A stretch of 64,000 nt of DNA from an uncultured Planctomycetaceae bacterium (GCA_964430075.1 CAYSFP010000008.1:145-64144); one strand, 5' to 3'; counted from the stretch's first letter, positions 5,856 through 20,952 are shown. Notes: a model not told the origin generated them from the letters alone. Made by a program: numbers and translations.

Positions 5856-6644
5856 TCAGGCGAGCCGAATCGGATCGCGCTCGGTCCGACTGGCCCAAAC
5901 CGTCACCTCGGCGAGCTGATCGGTCAAATAATCGGAGAGCGACAACAGGGCAAAGCGCTCGCTAGCAAAGTGGCCGGCGAGCACGACGCTGATCCCCAGG
6001 GCTTGAGCCTCCAGGCAGGTATGGAACGTCAACTCGCCGGTCATCAACGCGTCGCACTCGCGCGCCCGTGCGGCCTCAAGGAGCGATCCGCCACTGCCGC
6101 AGGCAATCGCCACGCGAACGATGGGTTTGTCAGCGGCGCCCACGATTCGCACGGCGTCGGCGCTGAGAAACTCTTTGGTCCGCGCGGCAAGCTCGCCAAG
6201 CGTCAGCGGCTCGCCGACCGTCCCGCACCGCCCCGTGCCGACGTCGGGATCGTCGCCCGCGGGCACAAGGGGATGAATCTCCTGCAATCCCAGGCCGATC
6301 GCCAGATGCTGGTTGATGCCCACCGACGCGGAATCGAACGCGGTGTGCGGGCTGTAGAGCGCGACGCCGTGGCGGATCAGCTCCAGCAGCAGCCGACCCG
6401 CGGTCGTGCGGGAGGTGATGGATTTCACCGCGCGGAACGGTAAGGGGTGGTGGGCCACGACGAGCTGGGCGCGGCCTTCGACGGCCTCGGCGACCGTCTC
6501 ACTGGTGACGGTGAGGCACGTCATCACCCGCTCGGCGGGCCAGGCGGCGTCGCCCACCAGCAAACCGACGTTGTCCCACTCCTCGGCAAGCGCCAAAGGG
6601 GCCAACTGTTCCAGCACGTGCGCAACCTGTCCGACGGTGGGCAT
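5856..6644 (-). CDS. Nif3-like dinuclear metal centre protein
   Basis: APLALAEEWDNVGLLVG, AHHPLPF, YSPHTAFD, TGELTFH and GHFASE motifs. Confidence 0.92.
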   Translation of the reverse strand: MPTVGQVAHVLEQLAPLALAEEWDNVGLLVGDAAWPAERVMTCLTVTSETVAEAVEGRAQLVVAHHPLPFRAVKSITSRTTAGRLLLELIRHGVALYSPHTAFDSASVGINQHLAIGLGLQEIHPLVPAGDDPDVGTGRCGTVGEPLTLGELAARTKEFLSADAVRIVGAADKPIVRVAIACGSGGSLLEAARARECDALMTGELTFHTCLEAQALGISVVLAGHFASERFALLSLSDYLTDQLAEVTVWASRTERDPIRLA

Positions 6645-6727
6645 ACCACAAATCGTAAACGCTCGTCGGGCGGTCAAGCAAGACGGCGCCCGCGGCGCGG
6701 CCCGCTGCGACGGGACGCAGTGCAAGC

Positions 6728-9361
6728 CTATTCGACGACGACAAAGCGGTGGTTCAGCACCCGCGAGCCGTTGACCTCCTCGGCTCGCAGCCACAGCTCA
6801 GCTCCCAGCAACTGCGACCCATGCGGATAGCGATAGACCTTCGTGTCCGAGCTGCCGCCGAGCCGGAACACTTGCGTGCGTTGCCGCCGCCGCCCGGGAG
6901 CGGAAAGATGACATTTGAAGTCGACCAACTGGGGCGAATGGTTGACCATGCGTTGCTCGATGATCAATGTGCCGTCGTTTTCTAGTCGCGTCGAGGTCTC
7001 GATTTGAACCAGGCCGTCGCCCACGATCAGCTCGCGATCGACGCTGAAGCGATACAGGCGATCGGCGTCGACGGAGAAGTCGGCCCGCAGCGGGGCGGCG
7101 CCGCTCGTGGCGTCGAATGGCAGCGAAATCTCGAACGGCCGCACGACCGTTTCCCCGGCGGCCAGCTTGAAGTCGATGCGTTGGGGCGTGATCTGCCAGC
7201 CCTCGGGCGCCGACAGTTCCACCGTCCCGCCCACGCCTTGAGCAAACGCGTTGGTCAGCTCGATGCCGTTGGGATGCGCCGTGCCGAACACGCTCGGCAC
7301 ATACAACTGCTTGAACTTGACCGCCATCCCCCACCGGGCGACCGACGCGTTGAGCCCCAGGACGAAGCGGGGCATGGACTCGACGTCGATCACCAGGCGG
7401 TCGCCGCTGGGACGCGATTGCTGTGCACGGCCCCACACGTCGAGCACGCGAAGCTCGTCGCCCAGCGGGATGACCTCTTCGGTGGGAACGTCGTTCCAGA
7501 CCACCATGAGCACGTCGCCGCCGGATCGTTGAAAGAGCCGGTTGGCGCTGCCGTTTTGCAGCTCGATCGTGCCCAGATACGTGGCTCCGCTGAGCAGCGA
7601 TGCCGTGGTGCGCCATGGCAGCAGCAGCTCGCCAGGCATGCCGTCGGTGGTCATCAGACCATGGTCGTCGTCAAATGGTTTGGCGGCAAAAATGGCGTCG
7701 GCGCCGTGAATCTTCGCGGCCAGCATTTGCTCGACGAGGTCGCGAGCGCGCGTTTCCAAGTCGTATTCCCGCGTCGACAACGGCTCCACGAGCACCCACC
7801 GCGCCACTTTGGGCGGCGCGGGTAGCTGCAGATACGCTGCCAATTCCTGTCCGGTCAGAGCGGGAGACGACGCGAACTGCTGAAACTGCCACGGCAGTCC
7901 TTCCGACGACGTTTGACTTTGGATCCATCTCCAGCCGAAACCCAAGCTCACGTCCTGACCGAAGCGAAAGAGCTTGTCGCGGAGCGATGCGATCCCCGTA
8001 TCTAAATTGCCCACGCGCGACAAGCTGGCGTCGTGGTCGCCGCCCAATTGCCACCACCGCACGCGCAGAGACAGTTTCGTCAGCACCGGCTCGAGTAGCG
8101 GCATCCAGCCGGCGGCATCGGTGTTGAATATGTCGGCGATCGACGCGTCGTCCGGCAGCCGCCGACCAAGCTCCGAGTCGGGGGGCGGGCGATCGATCAC
8201 GCCGACCACTTCAATGTGGTTGGCCGCCGCGCGATCAGCGAACCGCACGAGTTCCTCGCCCAGCGCCTCGTCGGCCTCGTTGTACCAGACGGGCGCCTTG
8301 ACCCAATGCACGGCCACGCGCGGTAGGAGTTTTGCAAGATCTTCGAGGGAGAGCGGGACGCGGTCTCCCACGAGCGACCAGCCGAATTCACCGGTGCGGA
8401 GTCGCTCGAGCGGCGGCGCCAGTGCGACGTTAACGATGCGCTGGTCCATCATGCCGCGAGCCGTCAGCATGGAGACGCGCACCTTGTAAAACCCGTGCTT
8501 GACAATCGGCGGCTTCCACGAGGTCGCGCCGGCGTACGCCGCGCGGTGCGTCTCGGTCACTCCCACGAACTCTGAAGCCCGCCGGCGGCGCTCGGTGATC
8601 AACCGGCCTTCGAGCTGAACGCGGCTGTTCCCCAACGTCTCACTGCTGGCGTCGAGCAGTTCGAAGTGAATGTCCGGGTCGCTTTCCAGGATGCCTGACA
8701 AGGAACAGGTGATTTCGATCTCGCCCGGGTCGGTGTAAACATTGCAGGCGTCGCCGGTCGATACGGTCATCCGGGGTAGGCGAGCCATCCATACATCGTC
8801 CAGCATCACTTTGCCGCTCAGATCGACGTGCTTGCCCGGCTTCACATGCAGTACGAGACGCGCGGCCGAGATTTCGCGTCGCTCGGGATTGACGGGGCCG
8901 ATGTGAAGCTTGATCCACTGGTTCTGGCGCGTGCCTGAGAGCCACTCGGTCGCTTCTGACTGGAGAAGTTGATCGTTGTCGTCGTAAAAATCGACGCGAA
9001 CCTGCACTCGCGTCGATGCGAGGCCGATGAGCCTGAGGCGGCACTCCGCCTTGTAGCTGAAATCGTCCGAAACTGCGACGAGCGGGCTTTCGACGTGGGC
9101 GCCGCCGCCGTCGACGTTGACGTTGAGACAGGTATTCCCAACGTTGGCGTTATCTTCGGCGATGCGGATGTCGACGTAGTGGGGCAGACCCTCGCCCAAG
9201 ACGCGGCGCCAATTGTCGGGCCAGTCGTCAAAGTTCGCGTCCCACGGTCGATCGAACTGGCAGTCGAACACGCAGATCGCGTCGGGGTGCCGATCCGTGC
9301 TGACGTGCGGCGCCGTCGCGGATAGAATCACGAGCGTCGTCAGAGCGGAGAGATTCAGCAT
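6728..9361 (-). CDS. Large secreted hypothetical protein (carbohydrate-binding-like N-terminus, GH-like barrel, NEW3-like domain)
   Basis: 877-aa ORF with a signal peptide. GGTVELSAPEGWQITP is NEW3-like. Confidence 0.75.
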   Translation of the reverse strand: MLNLSALTTLVILSATAPHVSTDRHPDAICVFDCQFDRPWDANFDDWPDNWRRVLGEGLPHYVDIRIAEDNANVGNTCLNVNVDGGGAHVESPLVAVSDDFSYKAECRLRLIGLASTRVQVRVDFYDDNDQLLQSEATEWLSGTRQNQWIKLHIGPVNPERREISAARLVLHVKPGKHVDLSGKVMLDDVWMARLPRMTVSTGDACNVYTDPGEIEITCSLSGILESDPDIHFELLDASSETLGNSRVQLEGRLITERRRRASEFVGVTETHRAAYAGATSWKPPIVKHGFYKVRVSMLTARGMMDQRIVNVALAPPLERLRTGEFGWSLVGDRVPLSLEDLAKLLPRVAVHWVKAPVWYNEADEALGEELVRFADRAAANHIEVVGVIDRPPPDSELGRRLPDDASIADIFNTDAAGWMPLLEPVLTKLSLRVRWWQLGGDHDASLSRVGNLDTGIASLRDKLFRFGQDVSLGFGWRWIQSQTSSEGLPWQFQQFASSPALTGQELAAYLQLPAPPKVARWVLVEPLSTREYDLETRARDLVEQMLAAKIHGADAIFAAKPFDDDHGLMTTDGMPGELLLPWRTTASLLSGATYLGTIELQNGSANRLFQRSGGDVLMVVWNDVPTEEVIPLGDELRVLDVWGRAQQSRPSGDRLVIDVESMPRFVLGLNASVARWGMAVKFKQLYVPSVFGTAHPNGIELTNAFAQGVGGTVELSAPEGWQITPQRIDFKLAAGETVVRPFEISLPFDATSGAAPLRADFSVDADRLYRFSVDRELIVGDGLVQIETSTRLENDGTLIIEQRMVNHSPQLVDFKCHLSAPGRRRQRTQVFRLGGSSDTKVYRYPHGSQLLGAELWLRAEEVNGSRVLNHRFVVVE

Positions 9362-9532: not shown

Positions 9533-10312
9533 GTGATTGGCTCCCCCGTTGCCGTTCAAACGCGCTGTCTGTCCGCGCCGCTTAAGCAAGCTTTGCACAT
9601 CGCGGCGCAGATCGGATGCGATGGCGTGCAGATCGACGCCCGCGAGGAGCTCCGCCCGCGCGATCTTTCCGACACAGGCCTTCGCCAGTTGCGGAAAATG
9701 CTGGACGATCTGAATTTGCGGGTCGGATCGCTCGCGTTTGCCTCACGGCACGGCTATGCCGACCCTCACAATCTCGAGCGACGCCTGGAGGCCACTGTCG
9801 ATGCCATGCGGCTGGCCGGACGGCTTGGGGCACGCATGCTCGTGTTCACCATGGGCCGATTACCCGCGCCGGAGGCGAGCGACCGGGGCACGCTCGTCGA
9901 AGCGCTGACGAGCTTGGCGGGCCAGGCCGCTCGTCTGGGCGTCGAGCTTGCTGCTCAGTGCCCGGAAGCGGAACCGGAAGAGCTTGCGGCTCTGTTCGAC
10001 CAACTGCCTGCGGGGCTCCTAGGCGTCGACCTCAACCCTGCCGCCTTGATCCGCTCGGGGCGGCAGTTGCAGACGTGGGTCGAGTCATTGGGAGCCCACA
10101 TCGCCCACGTGTTTGCCAACGATGCCGTTCGCGGCTTCGGCGGCGCGGCCGCGATGGACGTTGAACTGGGGCGCGGATCGGCCGACCTGCCAGCGCTGCT
10201 GGGGGCGCTCGAAGAGTTTGACTACTGTGGCTGGATCACAGTCGAGCGGCACAATTCCGCGCACGTCGTACAGGACTGCGAGGACGCAGTCGCGTACCTC
10301 CGCGCAACTTAG
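9533..10312 (+). CDS. Sugar phosphate isomerase/epimerase family (xylose-isomerase-like TIM barrel)
   Basis: GCDGVQIDAR, GVDLNPA, HVFANDA, VELGRG and WITVER motifs. Confidence 0.85.
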   Translation: MIGSPVAVQTRCLSAPLKQALHIAAQIGCDGVQIDAREELRPRDLSDTGLRQLRKMLDDLNLRVGSLAFASRHGYADPHNLERRLEATVDAMRLAGRLGARMLVFTMGRLPAPEASDRGTLVEALTSLAGQAARLGVELAAQCPEAEPEELAALFDQLPAGLLGVDLNPAALIRSGRQLQTWVESLGAHIAHVFANDAVRGFGGAAAMDVELGRGSADLPALLGALEEFDYCGWITVERHNSAHVVQDCEDAVAYLRAT

Positions 10313-10821: not shown

Positions 10822-12000
10822 ATGCAACCAGGCGACGTGGATCGGCGGGACTTTCTTCAGCAAACCGTTGGACTTGGGGCGGCGGCTCTCGCGACCGCCG
10901 CCGTTTCGCCCGCAGCCGCCCAACAGTCCGCCGCCAAACGAGTCCGAGTCGGCGTCATCGGCTGCGGCAGCGTCTCGGGGGCGTATCTGCCGCAACTCAC
11001 GACATGCCCCTACGCCGACGTAGTGAGCGTGTGCGACATCATTCCCGAGCGCGCCGCCAACCGCGCCCGCGAGTTCAACGTGCCCAACCACTATGGGCAC
11101 ATCAACGAGATGCTGGCCGGGGAGCCGTTCGACTTCCTGGTCAACCTCACCGACATGCAGGAGCACGAACACCTCAATCAGGAGGGGATCGCCGCCGGCA
11201 AGCACATCTGGAGCGAAAAGCCCATTGCCAACTCGCTCGCGGCGGGCCAGGCGATTCTTGAGCAAGCCAAGGCCCAGGGCGTGCGCGTGTGGGGCGCGCC
11301 GATCGTCGTCCACAGCCCTCAATTTGCATTCATGGCGAAGGCTCTCGCTGCGGGATCGCTGGGCCGCGTTGCCTCGGCCCACGCTGATTACGGGCACGAA
11401 GGACCTAATTGGTCGTCGTTCTTCTACGAGCCCGGCGGCGGCAGCATGCCCGATCTGGGCGTGTACAACCTGACCAGCCTCACCGGGCTGCTGGGTCCCG
11501 CCAAGAGCGTGGCGGCCATGACCAGCATTGTCACCCCCACGCGCAATATCGTCGGCAAGGGCGAAATCAAAGTCGGCGAAGAAGACAACGCCATGGTGCT
11601 GCTCGACCACGGGAACGGCACGCTCTCGCATGTGCAATCGGGCTTCAATTTCTTCAACCCTCATGGGCACGACGGCAGCAAGGAGAATCGTCACACGATC
11701 AGCATCTTCGGCTCCAAGGGCGCGATGGGTCTGGTGGGCTACGACTGGGCGCCCTTGGGCGTCGATCTCGCGACGGACAAGCAGCCGCAATTCAAACGCA
11801 GCGTTACGGATGCCGAGGGATACGTCTGGCAGCAAGGCGCCTCGCTGGCCGCGGAGACGCTGGTCACCGGCAAGGAATGGCTATTCACGCCCGAACACGC
11901 GCTGCATGTGGTGGAAATCATGACAGCTGCCCGCGAGTCGCAGCGCACCGGGCGGCGGATTGACCTGACGTCGACGTTCAAGTGGCCGCTGGCGATCTAG
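10822..12000 (+). CDS. Gfo/Idh/MocA oxidoreductase with Tat signal
   Basis: DRRDFL twin-arginine leader, GVIGCGSVS, SEKP and GGGSMPDLGVY. Confidence 0.9.
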   Translation: MQPGDVDRRDFLQQTVGLGAAALATAAVSPAAAQQSAAKRVRVGVIGCGSVSGAYLPQLTTCPYADVVSVCDIIPERAANRAREFNVPNHYGHINEMLAGEPFDFLVNLTDMQEHEHLNQEGIAAGKHIWSEKPIANSLAAGQAILEQAKAQGVRVWGAPIVVHSPQFAFMAKALAAGSLGRVASAHADYGHEGPNWSSFFYEPGGGSMPDLGVYNLTSLTGLLGPAKSVAAMTSIVTPTRNIVGKGEIKVGEEDNAMVLLDHGNGTLSHVQSGFNFFNPHGHDGSKENRHTISIFGSKGAMGLVGYDWAPLGVDLATDKQPQFKRSVTDAEGYVWQQGASLAAETLVTGKEWLFTPEHALHVVEIMTAARESQRTGRRIDLTSTFKWPLAI

Positions 12001-12041
12001 GCGCTGCGGATACGTTCAACCGAAGGCGGCGCGCTTGCTCT

Positions 12042-12124
12042 AGCCGCGACGCGACGCGTCGCCGGAGCGCAAGCGCGAGACGCCCCATTAAGACAGGACA
12101 CCAGCGACGCGTCGCGTCGCGGCT
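12042..12124. repeat. REP-like inverted repeat pair
   Basis: Perfect 21-bp inverted repeat agccgcgacgcgacgcgtcgc (12042-12062) / gcgacgcgtcgcgtcgcggct (12104-12124). Confidence 0.75.
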
Positions 12125-12186
12125 CGATCCAATTCGTTGCTTGGCATTCGAATTGACGCCAAACACAATCGCGAAGTTAGCAACTC

Positions 12187-13092
12187 ATGCCGCGCTGGAT
12201 CTTCTGGATGCTGGTCACGCTCCTTTCCTGGGGCGTTTGGGCGATTCTGCTCCACGAGCAGCTTAATCCCCAGCCGGTTGCCGCGGCCCACAGCCAGGCG
12301 ATGTCCACGCTCGGCATCCTTCCCATCATCGCCGCGCTGGCGGCGATGAAAGACCCCGCCGCGGCGGCTAACCGACGTCGGGGGGTGTTGCTTGCCTTCG
12401 GCTCCGGCGTCGTTTCTGGATTGGGCAACATCGGCTACTACGCCGCGCTGGCCAATGAGCGGACTGCCACAGTCGTGCCACTGGCCGCGCTGTACCCCGC
12501 CGTGACGATCCTCTTGGCGATGCCGCTGCTGCGGGAACGAATCACCCGCTTGCAGTGGTTCGGCATGGGCCTGTCGCTCGTGGCGATGTATCTCTTCCTC
12601 AAACCCGAACGGCGCGAAATCTCCGCCGGCGCCATGCTCGCGCTTGTCCCCATCGTGCTGTGGGGCGTGACGCTGCTGATGCAGAAGATGTCGACGGCCG
12701 ACATCTCGGCCCGCTCCTCGGCCATCTGGTTTCTCGCCGCGTTCGTGCCGCTGGCCGCCGTCATCCTGCTGCGGGAGCCGCTCCCCTCGGGCCTGGCGGT
12801 GAGAACCTGGGCGATGCAGTCCGCCGTGGGCTTCACGCTGGCGCTGGGGAACCTTACGATCCTGTTGGCGTGTGAGCAAGGCGGCAAAGCCTCGGTGATC
12901 GCCCCGCTGTCGGGGCTGTATCCGGCCGTGAGCGTGCCCATCGCCGTACTGTGGCTCGGCGACGAGGTCTCGCGGCGGCAGTTGGCGGCCATTGCCCTTT
13001 CGTTCGCCGCCGTCGTATTGCTGACTTATCAAACCGAGTCCGCCGCGCTGAGTCCTGAACCCTCGGCGCCCGAAGGAACGCCCGTGCCATGA
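12187..13092 (+). CDS. EamA/DMT family transporter
   Basis: Two EamA repeats (VVPLAALYPAVTILLA..LLRERIT; VIAPLSGLYP) and about 10 TM segments. Confidence 0.88.
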   Translation: MPRWIFWMLVTLLSWGVWAILLHEQLNPQPVAAAHSQAMSTLGILPIIAALAAMKDPAAAANRRRGVLLAFGSGVVSGLGNIGYYAALANERTATVVPLAALYPAVTILLAMPLLRERITRLQWFGMGLSLVAMYLFLKPERREISAGAMLALVPIVLWGVTLLMQKMSTADISARSSAIWFLAAFVPLAAVILLREPLPSGLAVRTWAMQSAVGFTLALGNLTILLACEQGGKASVIAPLSGLYPAVSVPIAVLWLGDEVSRRQLAAIALSFAAVVLLTYQTESAALSPEPSAPEGTPVP

Positions 13093-14024
13093 AACCTCTC
13101 GCTGAACTCCTTGCCGCGGGCGTCGTCATCGGCGACGGCGGTTATCTCATCGAACTGGAGCGCCGCGGCTACGTCGACAGCGGCTCCGGCCGCGAGCGCG
13201 TCGGCACGGGCCGCGGCAGCGGGCAGTTCACGCCTGAGGTGGCCATCGAGCAGCCCGACGCTCTCCGCGAGCTGCACCGGGAGTTTCTCAATGCCGGCTC
13301 GCGCGTGCTGCAGGCCCTCACGTTCTTCGGCACGCGCGAGAAGCTCAGCCGCGCGGGCTACGGCGAACAGACCGAATCGATCAACGCCGCGGCGGTGAAG
13401 CTCGCGAAAGAGGTCGCCGGCGAAGAGGCGCTGGTCGCCGGCAGCGTGTCGCGCACGCAGCTCATCGAGCGCGAAGGGCCCGAAGCGCTGGGCAAGGCCC
13501 GCGATCACATTGCCGAGCAGATTCGGCTGCTGGCAGACGCGGGCGTCGATTTCCTGCTCCTGGAAACGTTCTTCCACTTGTCCGAAATGAAGGTCGCGCT
13601 CGAGGCCGCGGCCGCCAGTGGCTTGCCGGTGATCGCCACCATGAGCTTCCGCCCGCTGGTGACGCAGTGCACCGACGGGCACTCGCCGGCCGATTGCGCC
13701 CGCGCGATGGCCGACTTGGGCGCGATCGCCGTCGGCGCCAACTGCGAACAGGATCCCCAGCGCATGCTGCCCCTCTTGCGCCAGATGCGCGACGCGGTCG
13801 ACGTACCCATTGCCGCCCAGCCAGCCGCGTTTCGCACCACGGACGAGTGCCACTCGTTCACCCGGTTGCCGCAGTTTCCCGACGATCTGGAAACCATCCA
13901 AATTTCCCGGACCGCGTTCACCGAGTTTGGCAAGGTCGCCGCGAACGAGAACATCCGCTTCGCCGGCGGCTGCTGCGGCTGCAACCCGGCGTATATCCGA
14001 GCGCTGGCCCAGGGTATTAGTTAG
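13089..14024 (+). CDS. Homocysteine S-methyltransferase family protein (BHMT-like)
   Basis: VIGDGGY..ELERRGYV, FTPE, LHREFLNAGS, and Zn-ligand motifs GANC and GGCCG. Confidence 0.88.
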   Translation: MKPLAELLAAGVVIGDGGYLIELERRGYVDSGSGRERVGTGRGSGQFTPEVAIEQPDALRELHREFLNAGSRVLQALTFFGTREKLSRAGYGEQTESINAAAVKLAKEVAGEEALVAGSVSRTQLIEREGPEALGKARDHIAEQIRLLADAGVDFLLLETFFHLSEMKVALEAAAASGLPVIATMSFRPLVTQCTDGHSPADCARAMADLGAIAVGANCEQDPQRMLPLLRQMRDAVDVPIAAQPAAFRTTDECHSFTRLPQFPDDLETIQISRTAFTEFGKVAANENIRFAGGCCGCNPAYIRALAQGIS

Positions 14025-14055
14025 TCGAACCGTTTTTTCGGGTGCAAGGTGCAGC

Positions 14056-15009
14056 ATGACGTCCCACTTCGCGATCGGCGTCGACGTGGGCGGAACCAAG
14101 TGCGCAGCCGGGCTGATCAGATTGCCGCAAGGCGATGTGTTGGCTCGTCGGCTTCAGCCTACCAGGGCCTCGCGCGACGGGACGGCTGTGCTCGCCGATG
14201 TTATCGAACTCATCAACGCGCTTGTCGCGGAATCATCGGCCTTGGGCGCCGCGCCCGTCGCGGTGGGCGTCGGCGTTGCCGAACTCGTCGGCTGCGAGGG
14301 ACGGGTGCTGAGCGATGCGACGATCGCGTGGTCGAACTTGCCGATTGCCGAGTCCGCGGCGCAGGCAACGAAACTGCCCGTCTTCCTCGACGCCGACGTA
14401 CGGGCTGCCGCGCGGGCCGAGGCATGTCTGGGTGCGGGGCGTGGACGCCACTCGATGCTCTACGTTACGGTCGGCACGGGAATCAGCGCCAGTCACGTCG
14501 TGGGCGGCGTTCCCTACGCCGGCGCCCGCGGGCTGACAGGCACGTGCGGCAGCGCACCGGGATTAATTCCCACGAATGACGGCCAGCTTGTCGGCGGGCA
14601 GCCGCTTGAGCACTTCGCGTCTGGTCCCGCGATCGCTGATCGCTTCTCCGCGCTCCGCGGCGATCGGGCGTATGTCACGCACGAAGTCATCGACCTGGCC
14701 GAAGCGGGCGACAAGCTGGCACGAACCGTCGTCACATCCGCCGGCGCCGCCTTGGGGGCCATGACGGCACATCTCGTCAATGTGCTCGACCCGGAAGTCG
14801 TCGTGCTCGGCGGCGGGCTTGGCCTGGTGGGCGGCGCCTACCGACGGACGATCGACGACGCCCTGCGCGCCCACATTTGGAGCGATCTGCACAGGAACGT
14901 CCCCTTGCACGCTGCGCAACTTGGCGTCGATGCGGGAGTCGTCGGCGCCGCGCTGTTTGCCAGCCGCCAGTGCGACCGACTGCACGCTCGGCAGATTTCG
15001 TCACCGTAG
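14056..15009 (+). CDS. ROK family sugar kinase
   Basis: GVDVGGTK, DADVRAAARAE, VTVGTGIS and LEHFASG motifs. Confidence 0.88.
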   Translation: MTSHFAIGVDVGGTKCAAGLIRLPQGDVLARRLQPTRASRDGTAVLADVIELINALVAESSALGAAPVAVGVGVAELVGCEGRVLSDATIAWSNLPIAESAAQATKLPVFLDADVRAAARAEACLGAGRGRHSMLYVTVGTGISASHVVGGVPYAGARGLTGTCGSAPGLIPTNDGQLVGGQPLEHFASGPAIADRFSALRGDRAYVTHEVIDLAEAGDKLARTVVTSAGAALGAMTAHLVNVLDPEVVVLGGGLGLVGGAYRRTIDDALRAHIWSDLHRNVPLHAAQLGVDAGVVGAALFASRQCDRLHARQISSP

Positions 15010-15034
15010 GCGGCAGCTCAGCGCCGCTCGCCCC

Positions 15035-15751
15035 ATGCTCAAGCCCATCGTCCTCGCCGATCACGAAGCGGTCAGCCGGCGCGCCGCCGAGGAAGTGATC
15101 GCCCTGCGGCAGGGCAACGCCGCCGCGCTGATTTGCCTCGCCTCGGGCGGCACGCCGACGCGGACTTACGAGTTGCTCGCCGCCCATGGCGCTCAGAACC
15201 CGGAGTTGTTTGCCCAGATGCGGGCGCTAAAACTCGATGAATGGGGCGGCTTGCCCGAGAACAGTCCGGGAACGTGCGAGCATCATCTCCGCAACACGCT
15301 CATCGATCCGCTTGGCCTCGGCCCGCGTTATGCCGCCTTTGCCAGTTCGCCCGCGGACCCGGCGGCAGAATGTGCGCGAATGGCCGCGTGGCTGGCCCGC
15401 CACGGTCCCATTGATTTGTGCATCCTGGGGCTGGGCGTGAACGGCCACTTGGGGTTCAACGAGCCCACCGGCGCACTGCAGCCGCACGCCCACATCGCGG
15501 TCCTGTCGTCGGCTTCGCTCGGCCACGCCATGATCGGCTCGACCGCGGTGCGACCAAGCTACGGCTTGACGCTCGGCATGGCCGACTTGCTGCAGGCGCG
15601 CCAAGTCTTGCTCCTTGTCACCGGAGCGGCCAAACGCGAGCCAATGGCCCGCCTGCTCGAGGGGCGCATCACGACGAGGCTGCCCGCCTCGCTATTGCAT
15701 CTGCATGCCAATGTCACGCTGTTATGTGACGAGGCGGCCTGCCCCCCTTGA
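15035..15751 (+). CDS. Glucosamine/galactosamine-6-phosphate deaminase-like (NagB/AgaI family)
   Basis: LASGGTP, KLDEWGGL, LGLGVNGHLGFNEP and PASLLHLH motifs. Confidence 0.88.
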   Translation: MLKPIVLADHEAVSRRAAEEVIALRQGNAAALICLASGGTPTRTYELLAAHGAQNPELFAQMRALKLDEWGGLPENSPGTCEHHLRNTLIDPLGLGPRYAAFASSPADPAAECARMAAWLARHGPIDLCILGLGVNGHLGFNEPTGALQPHAHIAVLSSASLGHAMIGSTAVRPSYGLTLGMADLLQARQVLLLVTGAAKREPMARLLEGRITTRLPASLLHLHANVTLLCDEAACPP

Positions 15752-15784: not shown

Positions 15785-16735
15785 TTACTGCAGCGTCACC
15801 GTCGCCACGACGGCGCGATGGTCGGATGGATATGGCGCCACGACAATGTCCGCGTGCTCTTCGTCCTCGCCCACGACGGCAACCTGCTCAACCTTCACGC
15901 CGCGTCCCGCCGCCAGCACCAGATCGATCCGGTCGTGTCGATCCTTGGGATCATCTTCCGCGGTGATCGGCGTCCAGGTGTTGCCGGGCTTCGCCACCGG
16001 ATCGGGGTGCACCTCGCGGTACGCGTCGACGAACCCCGTTTCGTGCATCACGGCCGTGCTCGGCCAGGCCACGACGACCGGGCAGAGGCCCGCCTGGCAC
16101 GCCGCCTCCGTCCAATCGAGCGACGACGGTTCATTGAAATCGCCGGTGACGAAGATCGGCGCGTCGTCGTTCCGCACCGCGTGGAGCTCCGCGAGCATCG
16201 ATTGGACTTCCTTGCCCCGCGCCGCCCGCGCGGCGCGCTCCGCCTCCTCGCCGGTATCGAGAAACGGCGCCTCGCCGTAGGGAATGTCGAATAACTGGTA
16301 CGGCTGGTACGGCGCATCGATGTAGTGCACATTGAACAGCCAGACGCGGCGGCCGGAAGGCAGTTCGAACTGCACGCCCCATTTGCGCGGCGTATGGCCG
16401 ACGATTTTATGGCGGCTCATCACCGCCGTGTCTTCGTCGCCCTGCGAGAAGTAATGCCAACCAAGCTGGGCGGCGATCTTCTCGGCGTGATCGGGCCGCA
16501 CGCCATTTTCCCGCGGACCGCAGACCTCTTGCAGGCCGACCAGATCCGCGCCCGATTCCGTGATGACGCGCGCGGTTTGCTCGAGCGGCTGTTTGCCGCC
16601 CGTTCCGCCCACCCAGATGTTGAACGTCATCACGCGAAACGTCTCTGGTTCCTGAGCGTGCGCCACGAACGAGTCTCCTCGGACGAACCATGCGGCGACG
16701 ATCGCGGTTAGCAATATGATGGCATTTTTGCACAT
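15785..16735 (-). CDS. Endonuclease/exonuclease/phosphatase family protein, secreted
   Basis: VMTFNI, VGLQE, GDFNEPS, RIDLVL and PSDHRAV motifs, with a signal peptide. Confidence 0.88.
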   Translation of the reverse strand: MCKNAIILLTAIVAAWFVRGDSFVAHAQEPETFRVMTFNIWVGGTGGKQPLEQTARVITESGADLVGLQEVCGPRENGVRPDHAEKIAAQLGWHYFSQGDEDTAVMSRHKIVGHTPRKWGVQFELPSGRRVWLFNVHYIDAPYQPYQLFDIPYGEAPFLDTGEEAERAARAARGKEVQSMLAELHAVRNDDAPIFVTGDFNEPSSLDWTEAACQAGLCPVVVAWPSTAVMHETGFVDAYREVHPDPVAKPGNTWTPITAEDDPKDRHDRIDLVLAAGRGVKVEQVAVVGEDEEHADIVVAPYPSDHRAVVATVTLQ

Positions 16736-16804
16736 GCTTAACGATTCCTCACGAGACGTTTTCGCGGCGAAGCTTTGGCGCCGCGGCAAATGACGACCTC
16801 GACG

Positions 16805-20746
<3,942 letters not shown>

Positions 20747-20952
20747 GTGCGTTACGCTGCAGGACTTGCGATGAGATAAGAGAAGTAGCGCCGGCCCGTT
20801 GGTCTTCAATCTTCGATCAATGCGAAGCGCCAAGGGCGGTCGACAGGCCCAAGCTACTCGCGCCGCAAGCGGCAATCAAGCATGGCGGTTCCGCGAGTCG
20901 CGAACTCGCAACGGACAACCGACGGCTTCGCCAGTCGCCGGGCGCGGCCCCA

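Follow-up and report, generated by a model that had tools for sequence, protein, structure and literature searches.

The window analyzed here, a 64,000-nucleotide stretch of DNA from an uncultured Planctomycetaceae bacterium (GCA_964430075.1, CAYSFP010000008.1:145-64144), contains a cluster of five genes coding for a Gfo/Idh/MocA oxidoreductase (Gfo) with a twin-arginine translocation (Tat) signal, an EamA transporter, a homocysteine S-methyltransferase (HcyMT) resembling betaine-homocysteine S-methyltransferase (BHMT), a ROK-family sugar kinase, and an AgaI/NagB-like deaminase (Table 1). The enzymes come from known families. What is new is a sharply bounded, apparently BHMT-derived subfamily that, in two phyla, forms a fixed part of an amino-sugar kinase/deaminase module. 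An initial annotation, made from the window sequence, had reported that the five genes are co-oriented and that the EamA and methyltransferase genes overlap by 4 bp. Both observations hold: all five genes are on the plus strand, and the EamA stop and HcyMT start codons share the sequence ATGA (13089-13092). The gaps downstream are 31 bp (HcyMT to ROK) and 25 bp (ROK to AgaI).

The Gfo gene is probably a separate transcription unit from EamA-HcyMT because the 186-bp spacing between Gfo and EamA holds a hairpin and a weak promoter match. The inverted repeat of the hairpin has a spacer of ~42 nt and a predicted fold of -82.5 kcal/mol (z -3.7), and it gives a weak match to a hairpin model in Rfam on both strands. 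It may be a terminator or an element resembling repetitive extragenic palindromic (REP) sequences or an insulator. The promoter-like site is 18 bp 5' of the EamA start. Gfo has the orientation initially described, but the gene likely has its own transcript. No riboswitch was identified in an Rfam search of the window region and seven related loci.

Table 1. Genes and sequence features of the cluster, with positions counted from the first nucleotide of the window (aa, amino acids; HTH, helix-turn-helix)
Feature	Coordinates	Strand	Basis
Gfo/Idh/MocA oxidoreductase type A, Tat signal	10822..12000	+	Pfam GFO_IDH_MocA and C-terminal domains
Hairpin, perfect 21-bp stem AGCCGCGACGCGACGCGTCGC and complement	12040..12126		Gfo-EamA intergenic; Rfam and folding
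Sigma-70-like promoter match, TTGGCA-17-CACAAT	12141..12169	+	Consensus scan, 9/12 matches, weak
EamA/DMT transporter, 301 aa	12187..13092	+	Pfam EamA, two domains
BHMT-like zinc homocysteine S-methyltransferase (HcyMT), 311 aa	13089..14024	+	PF02574
Gly/Arg insert codons, S31-G45 SGSGRERVGTGRGSG	13179..13223	+	Alignment of family against relatives
Cys219 codon, zinc ligand (BHMT Cys217)	13743..13745	+	Alignment to 1umy
Cys295-Cys296 codons, GGCCGC motif, zinc ligands (BHMT Cys299/Cys300)	13971..13976	+	Alignment to 1umy
Atypical ROK-family sugar kinase, 317 aa, no HTH	14056..15009	+	Pfam ROK
AgaI/NagB-like amino-sugar-6-phosphate deaminase/isomerase, 238 aa	15035..15751	+	Pfam Glucosamine_iso

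A BHMT-related methyltransferase with a Gly/Arg insert

HcyMT matches PF02574 over residues 13-308 (E 8e-52, 177.3 bits against a cut-off of 22), and the solved structure most similar to it in sequence is that of animal BHMT (1umy, E 6e-52). An AlphaFold (AF2) model built on a 104-sequence alignment has a predicted local distance difference test score (pLDDT) of 93.8. The top Foldseek match for this model is human BHMT with a bisubstrate inhibitor (1lt8, TM 0.88, rmsd 1.6 Å), followed by the homocysteine domains of MetH (TM ~0.78) and Escherichia coli MmuM (5dmm, 5dmn, and 5dml; TM 0.64-0.73). The three zinc ligands (C219, C295, and C296) are invariant or nearly so across the family. Resemblance to animal-type BHMT and retention of three zinc cysteines, both described in the initial annotation, are thus confirmed. 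The homocysteine site is also kept: the DGG motif at D16-G18 aligns to BHMT D26-G28 and Glu159 to E159, and both are family-invariant.

Differences from BHMT are found on the donor side. BHMT Trp44, reportedly a betaine-contact residue in the work on 1LT8, is replaced by Phe47, and Tyr77 is replaced by Phe80, each in 33 of 33 family members. We give the Trp44 change little weight because a relative in a betaine operon (P0135, below) has Phe there too. Tyr77 is described as hydrogen-bonding betaine in the rat structure (PMC3871600, citing Gonzalez 2004). The equivalent of BHMT Phe76 is retained. A change of Tyr160 to Thr was rejected as diagnostic because Thr is the most common residue at that position in relatives that lack the insert. 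The C-terminal residue of HcyMT (311) aligns to BHMT residue 313, and the oligomerization arm (~320-406) is absent. Scores against NCBIfam models are low for both the BHMT equivalog (PRK07534, 103.6 bits against a cut-off of 338) and MmuM (PRK09485, 75.6 against 215); the top match is a YitJ-type S-adenosylmethionine (AdoMet)/homocysteine domain (171 bits). Taken together, the alignments suggest a BHMT-derived subfamily with a remodeled donor side and an intact homocysteine/zinc half.

The Gly/Arg insertion that had been noticed before the FTPE motif is borne out as a 15-residue segment, S31-G45 (SGSGRERVGTGRGSG), directly ahead of F47. Its consensus, SGSGRE[Q/K/R]VGTGRGSG, varies within the family at residue 37 (Q, K, or R) and, rarely, at 39 and 42, and is otherwise invariant; no aligned relative at ≤50% identity has the insert. 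Residues 37-44 have a pLDDT of <50 in the AF2 model, the behavior that would be expected of a lid closing over a substrate. Its composition, with two fixed Arg residues among Gly, Ser, and Thr, resembles anion- or phosphate-binding loops and may point to a similar role.

Family bounds were searched in a representative library of 1.84 billion proteins. The HcyMT family is a single tight group whose most divergent full-length member is 74% identical, and the next relatives are at ≤50%. In a survey of 185,579 species genomes, 185 stretches encode an HcyMT relative, and the best 80 of the 185 were analyzed. These 80 are 74-88% identical to HcyMT and come mainly from metagenome-assembled genomes (MAGs) of Verrucomicrobiota (Limisphaerales, Pedosphaerales, and Verrucomicrobiales) and Planctomycetota (Pirellulales and Lacipirellulaceae) recovered from lakes, groundwater, soil, and sludge. 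The gene is also present in a small clade of Gaiellales/Thermoleophilia (Actinomycetota). No cultured carrier was named among the members of its protein cluster. Seven loci (L029, L056, L084, L087, L057, L090, and L097) are on MAG contigs from lakes or other environments that are titled 'Akkermansia muciniphila' or 'Bifidobacterium sp.'; these submitter labels look wrong because the neighboring genes are verrucomicrobial and the tree places the loci in Verrucomicrobiota.

Identity of HcyMT across phyla is 74-88%, and that of the neighboring proteins is 30-74%. Because the HcyMT tree sorts by phylum, with a Planctomycetota clade of 12 (SH-aLRT 96), the high identity mostly reflects slow evolution and not recent transfer. 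The module is an accessory trait: the gene is present in only 7 of 25 genomes from the source's own family and is missing from three genus-mates whose assemblies consist of one or two contigs. In one orthologue (L017 8417-9347, genome G007), a frame change with one TAG interrupts the coding sequence near residue 211, with EamA, ROK, and AgaI intact; this is a recent pseudogene or else an indel introduced in assembly.

Two relatives without the insert (L110 and L107) are 43-45% identical to HcyMT. Downstream of one of them, P0135 (45% identical, Tyr77 kept, L110 6001-11112), are genes for a dimethylglycine dehydrogenase-like protein of 817 aa (DAO/FAO_M/GCV_T) and for a DAO-type FAD oxidase, and the locus is by its gene content a classical operon for conversion of betaine to dimethylglycine and sarcosine. 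The other, P0132 (L107 91-3956), adjoins two nicotianamine-synthase-like genes and an EgtB-like gene. The source genome of the window has no FAO_M domain of the dimethylglycine dehydrogenase type, so HcyMT has no betaine pathway behind it. It does encode MetH and a third PF02574 paralogue. That stand-alone paralogue (contig C4:11689-17287, outside the window) is in a cluster that also encodes a URO-D-like methyltransferase, a corrinoid protein that binds B12, and a reductive activator of the RACo type; the cluster looks like a system for corrinoid-dependent methyl transfer ending on homocysteine. Since both MetH and the corrinoid-linked paralogue are present, HcyMT is not needed for folate- or corrinoid-linked methionine synthesis.

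Conservation of the neighborhood and its enzymes

Neighborhoods were compared by calling open reading frames within 8 kb on either side of HcyMT, clustering them, and cross-checking with tblastn. HcyMT was located in 78 loci, of which 48 have at least 3.5 kb on both sides and served as a flank-controlled subset. Conservation of the neighborhood, which the initial annotation had proposed as a check, was found in other genomes: HcyMT has ROK as a neighbor in 75 of 78 loci (43/48 flank-controlled), EamA in 69 (44/48), a NagB-family deaminase in 63 (39/48), and Gfo in 56 (35/48). These are the only genes of the window that recur with HcyMT. EamA is upstream of HcyMT in all 69, and the 4-bp overlap occurs at 17 of 61 junctions measured.

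Gene order differs among phyla. It is EamA-HcyMT-ROK-AgaI in Planctomycetota and (GfoB-)EamA-HcyMT-NagB-ROK(-GfoA) in Verrucomicrobiota. Loci in Actinomycetota have only ROK and HcyMT, divergently oriented, plus a TetR gene. ROK and HcyMT are thus the minimal unit of the module, and because the Actinomycetota clade keeps just this pair and the TetR gene, the two enzymes probably share a metabolite. Their joint product in Actinomycetota would feed into ordinary metabolism.

The deaminase of the window matches Pfam Glucosamine_iso (62 bits) and Bacillus subtilis NagB (2bkv, E 2e-33), to which its LDEW and GHLGFNEP motifs align. It is below the NCBIfam cut-offs for AgaI (256.2 bits against 271) and nagB (121.6 against 236.9), as is the verrucomicrobial NagB-like partner (172 against 326). 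Planctomycete deaminases are AgaI-like and 56-70% identical to that of the window; verrucomicrobial ones are 29-37% identical and score best on NagB models. In the locus of P0121, the most divergent HcyMT member (L022), a SIS protein of 355 aa, akin to the isomerase domain of GlmS, occupies this position. This exchange of AgaI, NagB, and SIS proteins is a non-orthologous replacement. Three enzyme lineages with the same reaction type in the same place argue for deamination of an amino-sugar-6-phosphate as part of the pathway. Combined with the permuted gene order, they are also what would be expected of selection for the reaction and not of an inherited gene order.

The kinase has a clear ROK match in Pfam (E 1e-43, 150.5 bits), and its closest solved relatives are glucokinases. 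It keeps DVGGTK and the catalytic Asp, and its DADV aligns to glucokinase ENDAN. It lacks the zinc motif CxCGxxGC and the ExGH sugar-contact motif (GTCGS...LVGGQ vs GELGH...CGCGLEGC in 3vov), a loss conserved across 75 orthologues that would fit a sugar altered around C1/C2. No NagA-type deacetylase recurs in the module neighborhoods, which fits a free or alkylated amine and not an N-acetyl sugar. Genes for dimethylglycine or sarcosine oxidation are absent from beside HcyMT in the 80 loci. The transporter has only weak NCBIfam matches, to a carboxylate/amino acid/amine transporter and to YedA.

Gfo is an accessory member of the module, and its position and type vary among the 56 loci that have it. 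The protein of the window has an N-terminus (MQPGDVDRRDFLQQ / MQPGDVDRRDFLQQTVGLGAAALATAAVSPAAAQQ) with a twin-arginine signal, RRDFLQQ...AAAQQ, before GVIGCG. Glycoside 3-oxidoreductases (DgpA) and scyllo-inositol/L-glucose dehydrogenase are among its closest solved relatives, and NCBIfam gives weak matches to the glycoside 3-dehydrogenases BT_2158/2159. Type A (Tat-exported) was found in 22 loci and is 63-74% identical even across phyla; type B (cytoplasmic) was found in 37 loci and is 35-39% identical. Three loci have both. A strict RRxF[LIVM] motif is present in 4 of the 22 type A orthologues, and the six N-termini inspected all have RR-type signals.

Less frequent neighbors include double-DUF1080 '3-keto-disaccharide hydrolase' proteins (21 loci, sometimes abutting the operon), RpiR or XylR-type regulators, DUF1559 pseudopilin-like proteins, and DUF7133-HEAT-cytochrome c proteins. 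RpiR regulators, which have a SIS domain and belong to a family that senses sugar phosphates, are present in some loci. A large protein with DUF7133 (a sorbosone-dehydrogenase-like propeller), HEAT, and cytochrome c domains is encoded convergent to the module in the window (16805-20875, minus strand). A similar protein is encoded upstream of the module in ~7 loci, and a 970-aa DUF7133-type relative lies inside the operon between NagB and ROK in L032 (12818-15730); L035 has a NagB-ROK gap of similar size. Such proteins could be electron acceptors of the periplasmic Gfo.

Other genes near the cluster do not recur. A xylose-isomerase-like TIM-barrel gene (9533-10312) is 5' of the module, and a secreted endonuclease/exonuclease/phosphatase (EEP) gene (15785-16789) is 3' of it. 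The EEP gene recurs in only two of the 80 loci, in one of them (L083) immediately 5' of EamA. A link of the module to either gene, or to BshC-like genes, was rejected because none of them recurs beside it. In L097, ROK is followed by a gene for a short MetE-like (Meth_synt_2) cobalamin-independent methionine synthase (5991-7193), and this cluster therefore holds two different homocysteine methyltransferases.

A candidate pathway for a methylated amino sugar

Conservation of the module makes it likely that HcyMT, the kinase, and the deaminase work in one pathway. Genes that follow the methyltransferase in betaine operons encode enzymes acting on what demethylation leaves. If the same logic applies here, ROK and the deaminase would act on the product of HcyMT, or ROK would make its substrate, and a methylated amino sugar would serve as methyl donor. 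The leaving-group precursor in BHMT-type chemistry has to be cationic, and this suggests an N-methylated (onium) hexosamine. The ROK/HcyMT pair, the resemblance of the insert to anion-binding loops, and the RpiR regulators favor a sequence of uptake, C6 phosphorylation, demethylation, and deamination.

Under this scheme, EamA would import a cationic N-methylated hexosamine (mono- to trimethyl), and ROK would phosphorylate it at C6. HcyMT would activate homocysteine on its Cys3 zinc site and demethylate the onium nitrogen of the (phospho)sugar, which would sit in a pocket rich in Phe beneath the flexible insert; the insert would bind the sugar phosphate. The products would be methionine and hexosamine-6-phosphate, and an AgaI, NagB, or SIS-type enzyme would convert the latter to a ketose-6-phosphate and an amine, with the ketose entering glycolysis. 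Gfo would probably serve to prepare or release the sugar, as it might by oxidizing a glycoside at C3. We give the whole scheme, with a methylated hexosamine as methyl donor, a probability of about 0.4. The same figure applies to HcyMT being the first homocysteine-dependent demethylase with a sugar methyl donor, an N-methylated hexosamine that is likely used as the 6-phosphate and recognized via the insert.

The initial annotation had proposed uptake and catabolism of an N- or S-methylated (amino)sugar with methyl salvage to methionine and had stated that no such pathway is described. The tie between methyltransferase and kinase/deaminase stands, in ~80 genomes from two or three phyla; the substrate class, the order of kinase before methyltransferase, and the role of the insert are parts that we infer. 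The literature searched contained no published description of the cluster or of natural N-methylglucosamine catabolism, in agreement with that statement.

Several points weigh against the sugar-donor scheme, which rests on comparative evidence. We know of no abundant natural N-methyl or trimethyl hexosamine; trace cases are the N-methyl-L-glucosamine of streptomycin and TMG-chitotriomycin. To our knowledge, donors of BHMT-type enzymes are quaternary ammonium or sulfonium compounds only, and a protonated mono-N-methyl donor is unprecedented in the family. One demethylation of a trimethyl sugar would leave a dimethylamine, and acceptance of this by NagB-type enzymes is not known. The insert, which is proposed to bind the phosphate, has no ordered structure in the model, the scores of the deaminases fall short of the equivalog cut-offs, and Gfo has no necessary place in the scheme. 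Most relatives of EamA transport amino acids or other small metabolites, in some cases AdoMet. Because homocysteine is consumed stoichiometrically, flux is limited, and the compound may not support growth.

An unlikely alternative, though the strongest of those considered, starts from the transporter. EamA would import S-methylmethionine or AdoMet, HcyMT would methylate homocysteine as in the MmuP-MmuM system, and ROK and the deaminase would catabolize glucosamine. Translational coupling of EamA and HcyMT and the YitJ-type best NCBIfam match are consistent with this, and the characterized stand-alone bacterial PF02574 enzymes all use S-methylmethionine or AdoMet (PMC6302742). Linkage to the sugar genes would then reflect co-regulation or a conjugate, for example an Amadori/Heyns-type adduct of a sugar and S-methylmethionine that is first split by the kinase and a deglycase; SIS/NagB-type enzymes such as FrlB and GfrE/F can be deglycases on sugar-amine adducts. 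However, HcyMT is far below the MmuM cut-off and is structurally closer to BHMT than to MmuM. Generic salvage also leaves the invariant insert and very slow evolution unexplained, and the near-constant adjacency of ROK, the permuted order, and the deaminase swap are hard to account for without a shared pathway. The Actinomycetota loci retain ROK and not EamA.

We consider it somewhat less likely again that the substrate is a hexosamine glycoside of an onium aglycone (choline-like or a sulfonio-hydroxy acid), cleaved oxidatively by Gfo together with DUF1080 or similar proteins, with the aglycone as methyl donor and the hexosamine passed to ROK and the deaminase. This reading would give a role to the recurrent Gfo, with its DgpA relatives and weak BT_2158/2159 matches, and to the double-DUF1080 genes, and choline transporters of the DMT family exist. 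Yet roughly one locus in four lacks Gfo, as does the Actinomycetota pair, its periplasmic and cytoplasmic types need not be isofunctional, no such glycoside is known, and the minimal ROK/HcyMT pair is left unexplained.

It is improbable that HcyMT (de)alkylates another thiol or selenol (a thio- or seleno-sugar, or a glucosamine-containing thiol) or takes its methyl group from a corrinoid protein encoded elsewhere: PF02574 includes selenocysteine methyltransferases and the source genome has a corrinoid methyltransferase cluster, but that cluster has its own dedicated PF02574 paralogue, the homocysteine-binding DGG and Glu159 are invariant, and no BshC-like run or corrinoid gene recurs beside the module in 80 loci. 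Three further readings were rejected. O-methyl sugar ethers were discounted as donors on chemical grounds, since an alkoxide leaves poorly and O-demethylation, where known, depends on P450, folate, or corrinoids. A LuxS-like pathway for S-ribosylhomocysteine or S-ribosylmethionine does not agree with ROK acting on a free primary C6 hydroxyl or with a third gene that is an amino-sugar deaminase in three independent forms. A biosynthetic direction with methionine as donor was dismissed on thermodynamic grounds.

Demethylation of an N-methylated hexosamine explains the insert, the minimal pair, and the deaminase swap together better than any of these alternatives. Few methyl donors to homocysteine are known (methyl-folate, methyl-corrinoids, betaine, S-methylmethionine, and AdoMet). 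If the scheme is true, a sugar-borne donor would be a new class of biological methyl donor and would imply an overlooked natural compound. In lakes, soils, groundwater, and sludge, Planctomycetota and Verrucomicrobiota would then use an undescribed pathway to obtain methyl groups as well as carbon and nitrogen from a compound, a methylated amino sugar, that is yet to be recognized as an environmental metabolite. Routine annotation names this protein 'betaine-homocysteine S-methyltransferase' (JGI names), which is probably wrong for the HcyMT subfamily and would mislead inference of betaine use and methyl cycles from metagenomes. Among the bacterial proteins compared here, this family is also the one closest to animal BHMT, and it bears on the origin of BHMT.

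Comparison with known systems

HcyMT shares with BHMT and BHMT2 (EC 2.1.1.5) the (beta-alpha)8 barrel, the Cys3 zinc site, and the homocysteine site formed by DGG and Glu159. BHMT and BHMT2 have 406-407 aa, including a C-terminal oligomerization arm of ~90 residues, whereas HcyMT has 311 aa without the arm, a 15-residue insert before the Trp44 position, and Phe in place of both Trp44 and Tyr77. Unlike either enzyme, it is encoded in a sugar-kinase/deaminase operon.

Bacterial betaine operons (the P0135 locus and Sinorhizobium-type BHMT) follow the same logic, a methyltransferase and then enzymes that use the demethylated product. Their partners are DAO/GCV_T oxidases, and P0135 keeps Tyr77 and has no insert; here the partners are ROK and a NagB-type deaminase. 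E. coli MmuP-MmuM and B. subtilis YitJ/SamT likewise couple a transporter to a PF02574 methyltransferase that salvages methyl groups to methionine. MmuP, however, is an APC permease where this module has EamA, and the MmuM-type system has no sugar genes.

NagK/NagB, AgaK/AgaS/AgaI, and FrlD/FrlB share with the module a kinase followed by an amino-sugar-6-phosphate deaminase/isomerase, and NagB-type and SIS-type enzymes are interchangeable here as AgaI and AgaS are in E. coli. The module differs from these catabolic systems in having no deacetylase, a ROK kinase without the zinc and ExGH motifs, and a methyltransferase between uptake and the kinase.

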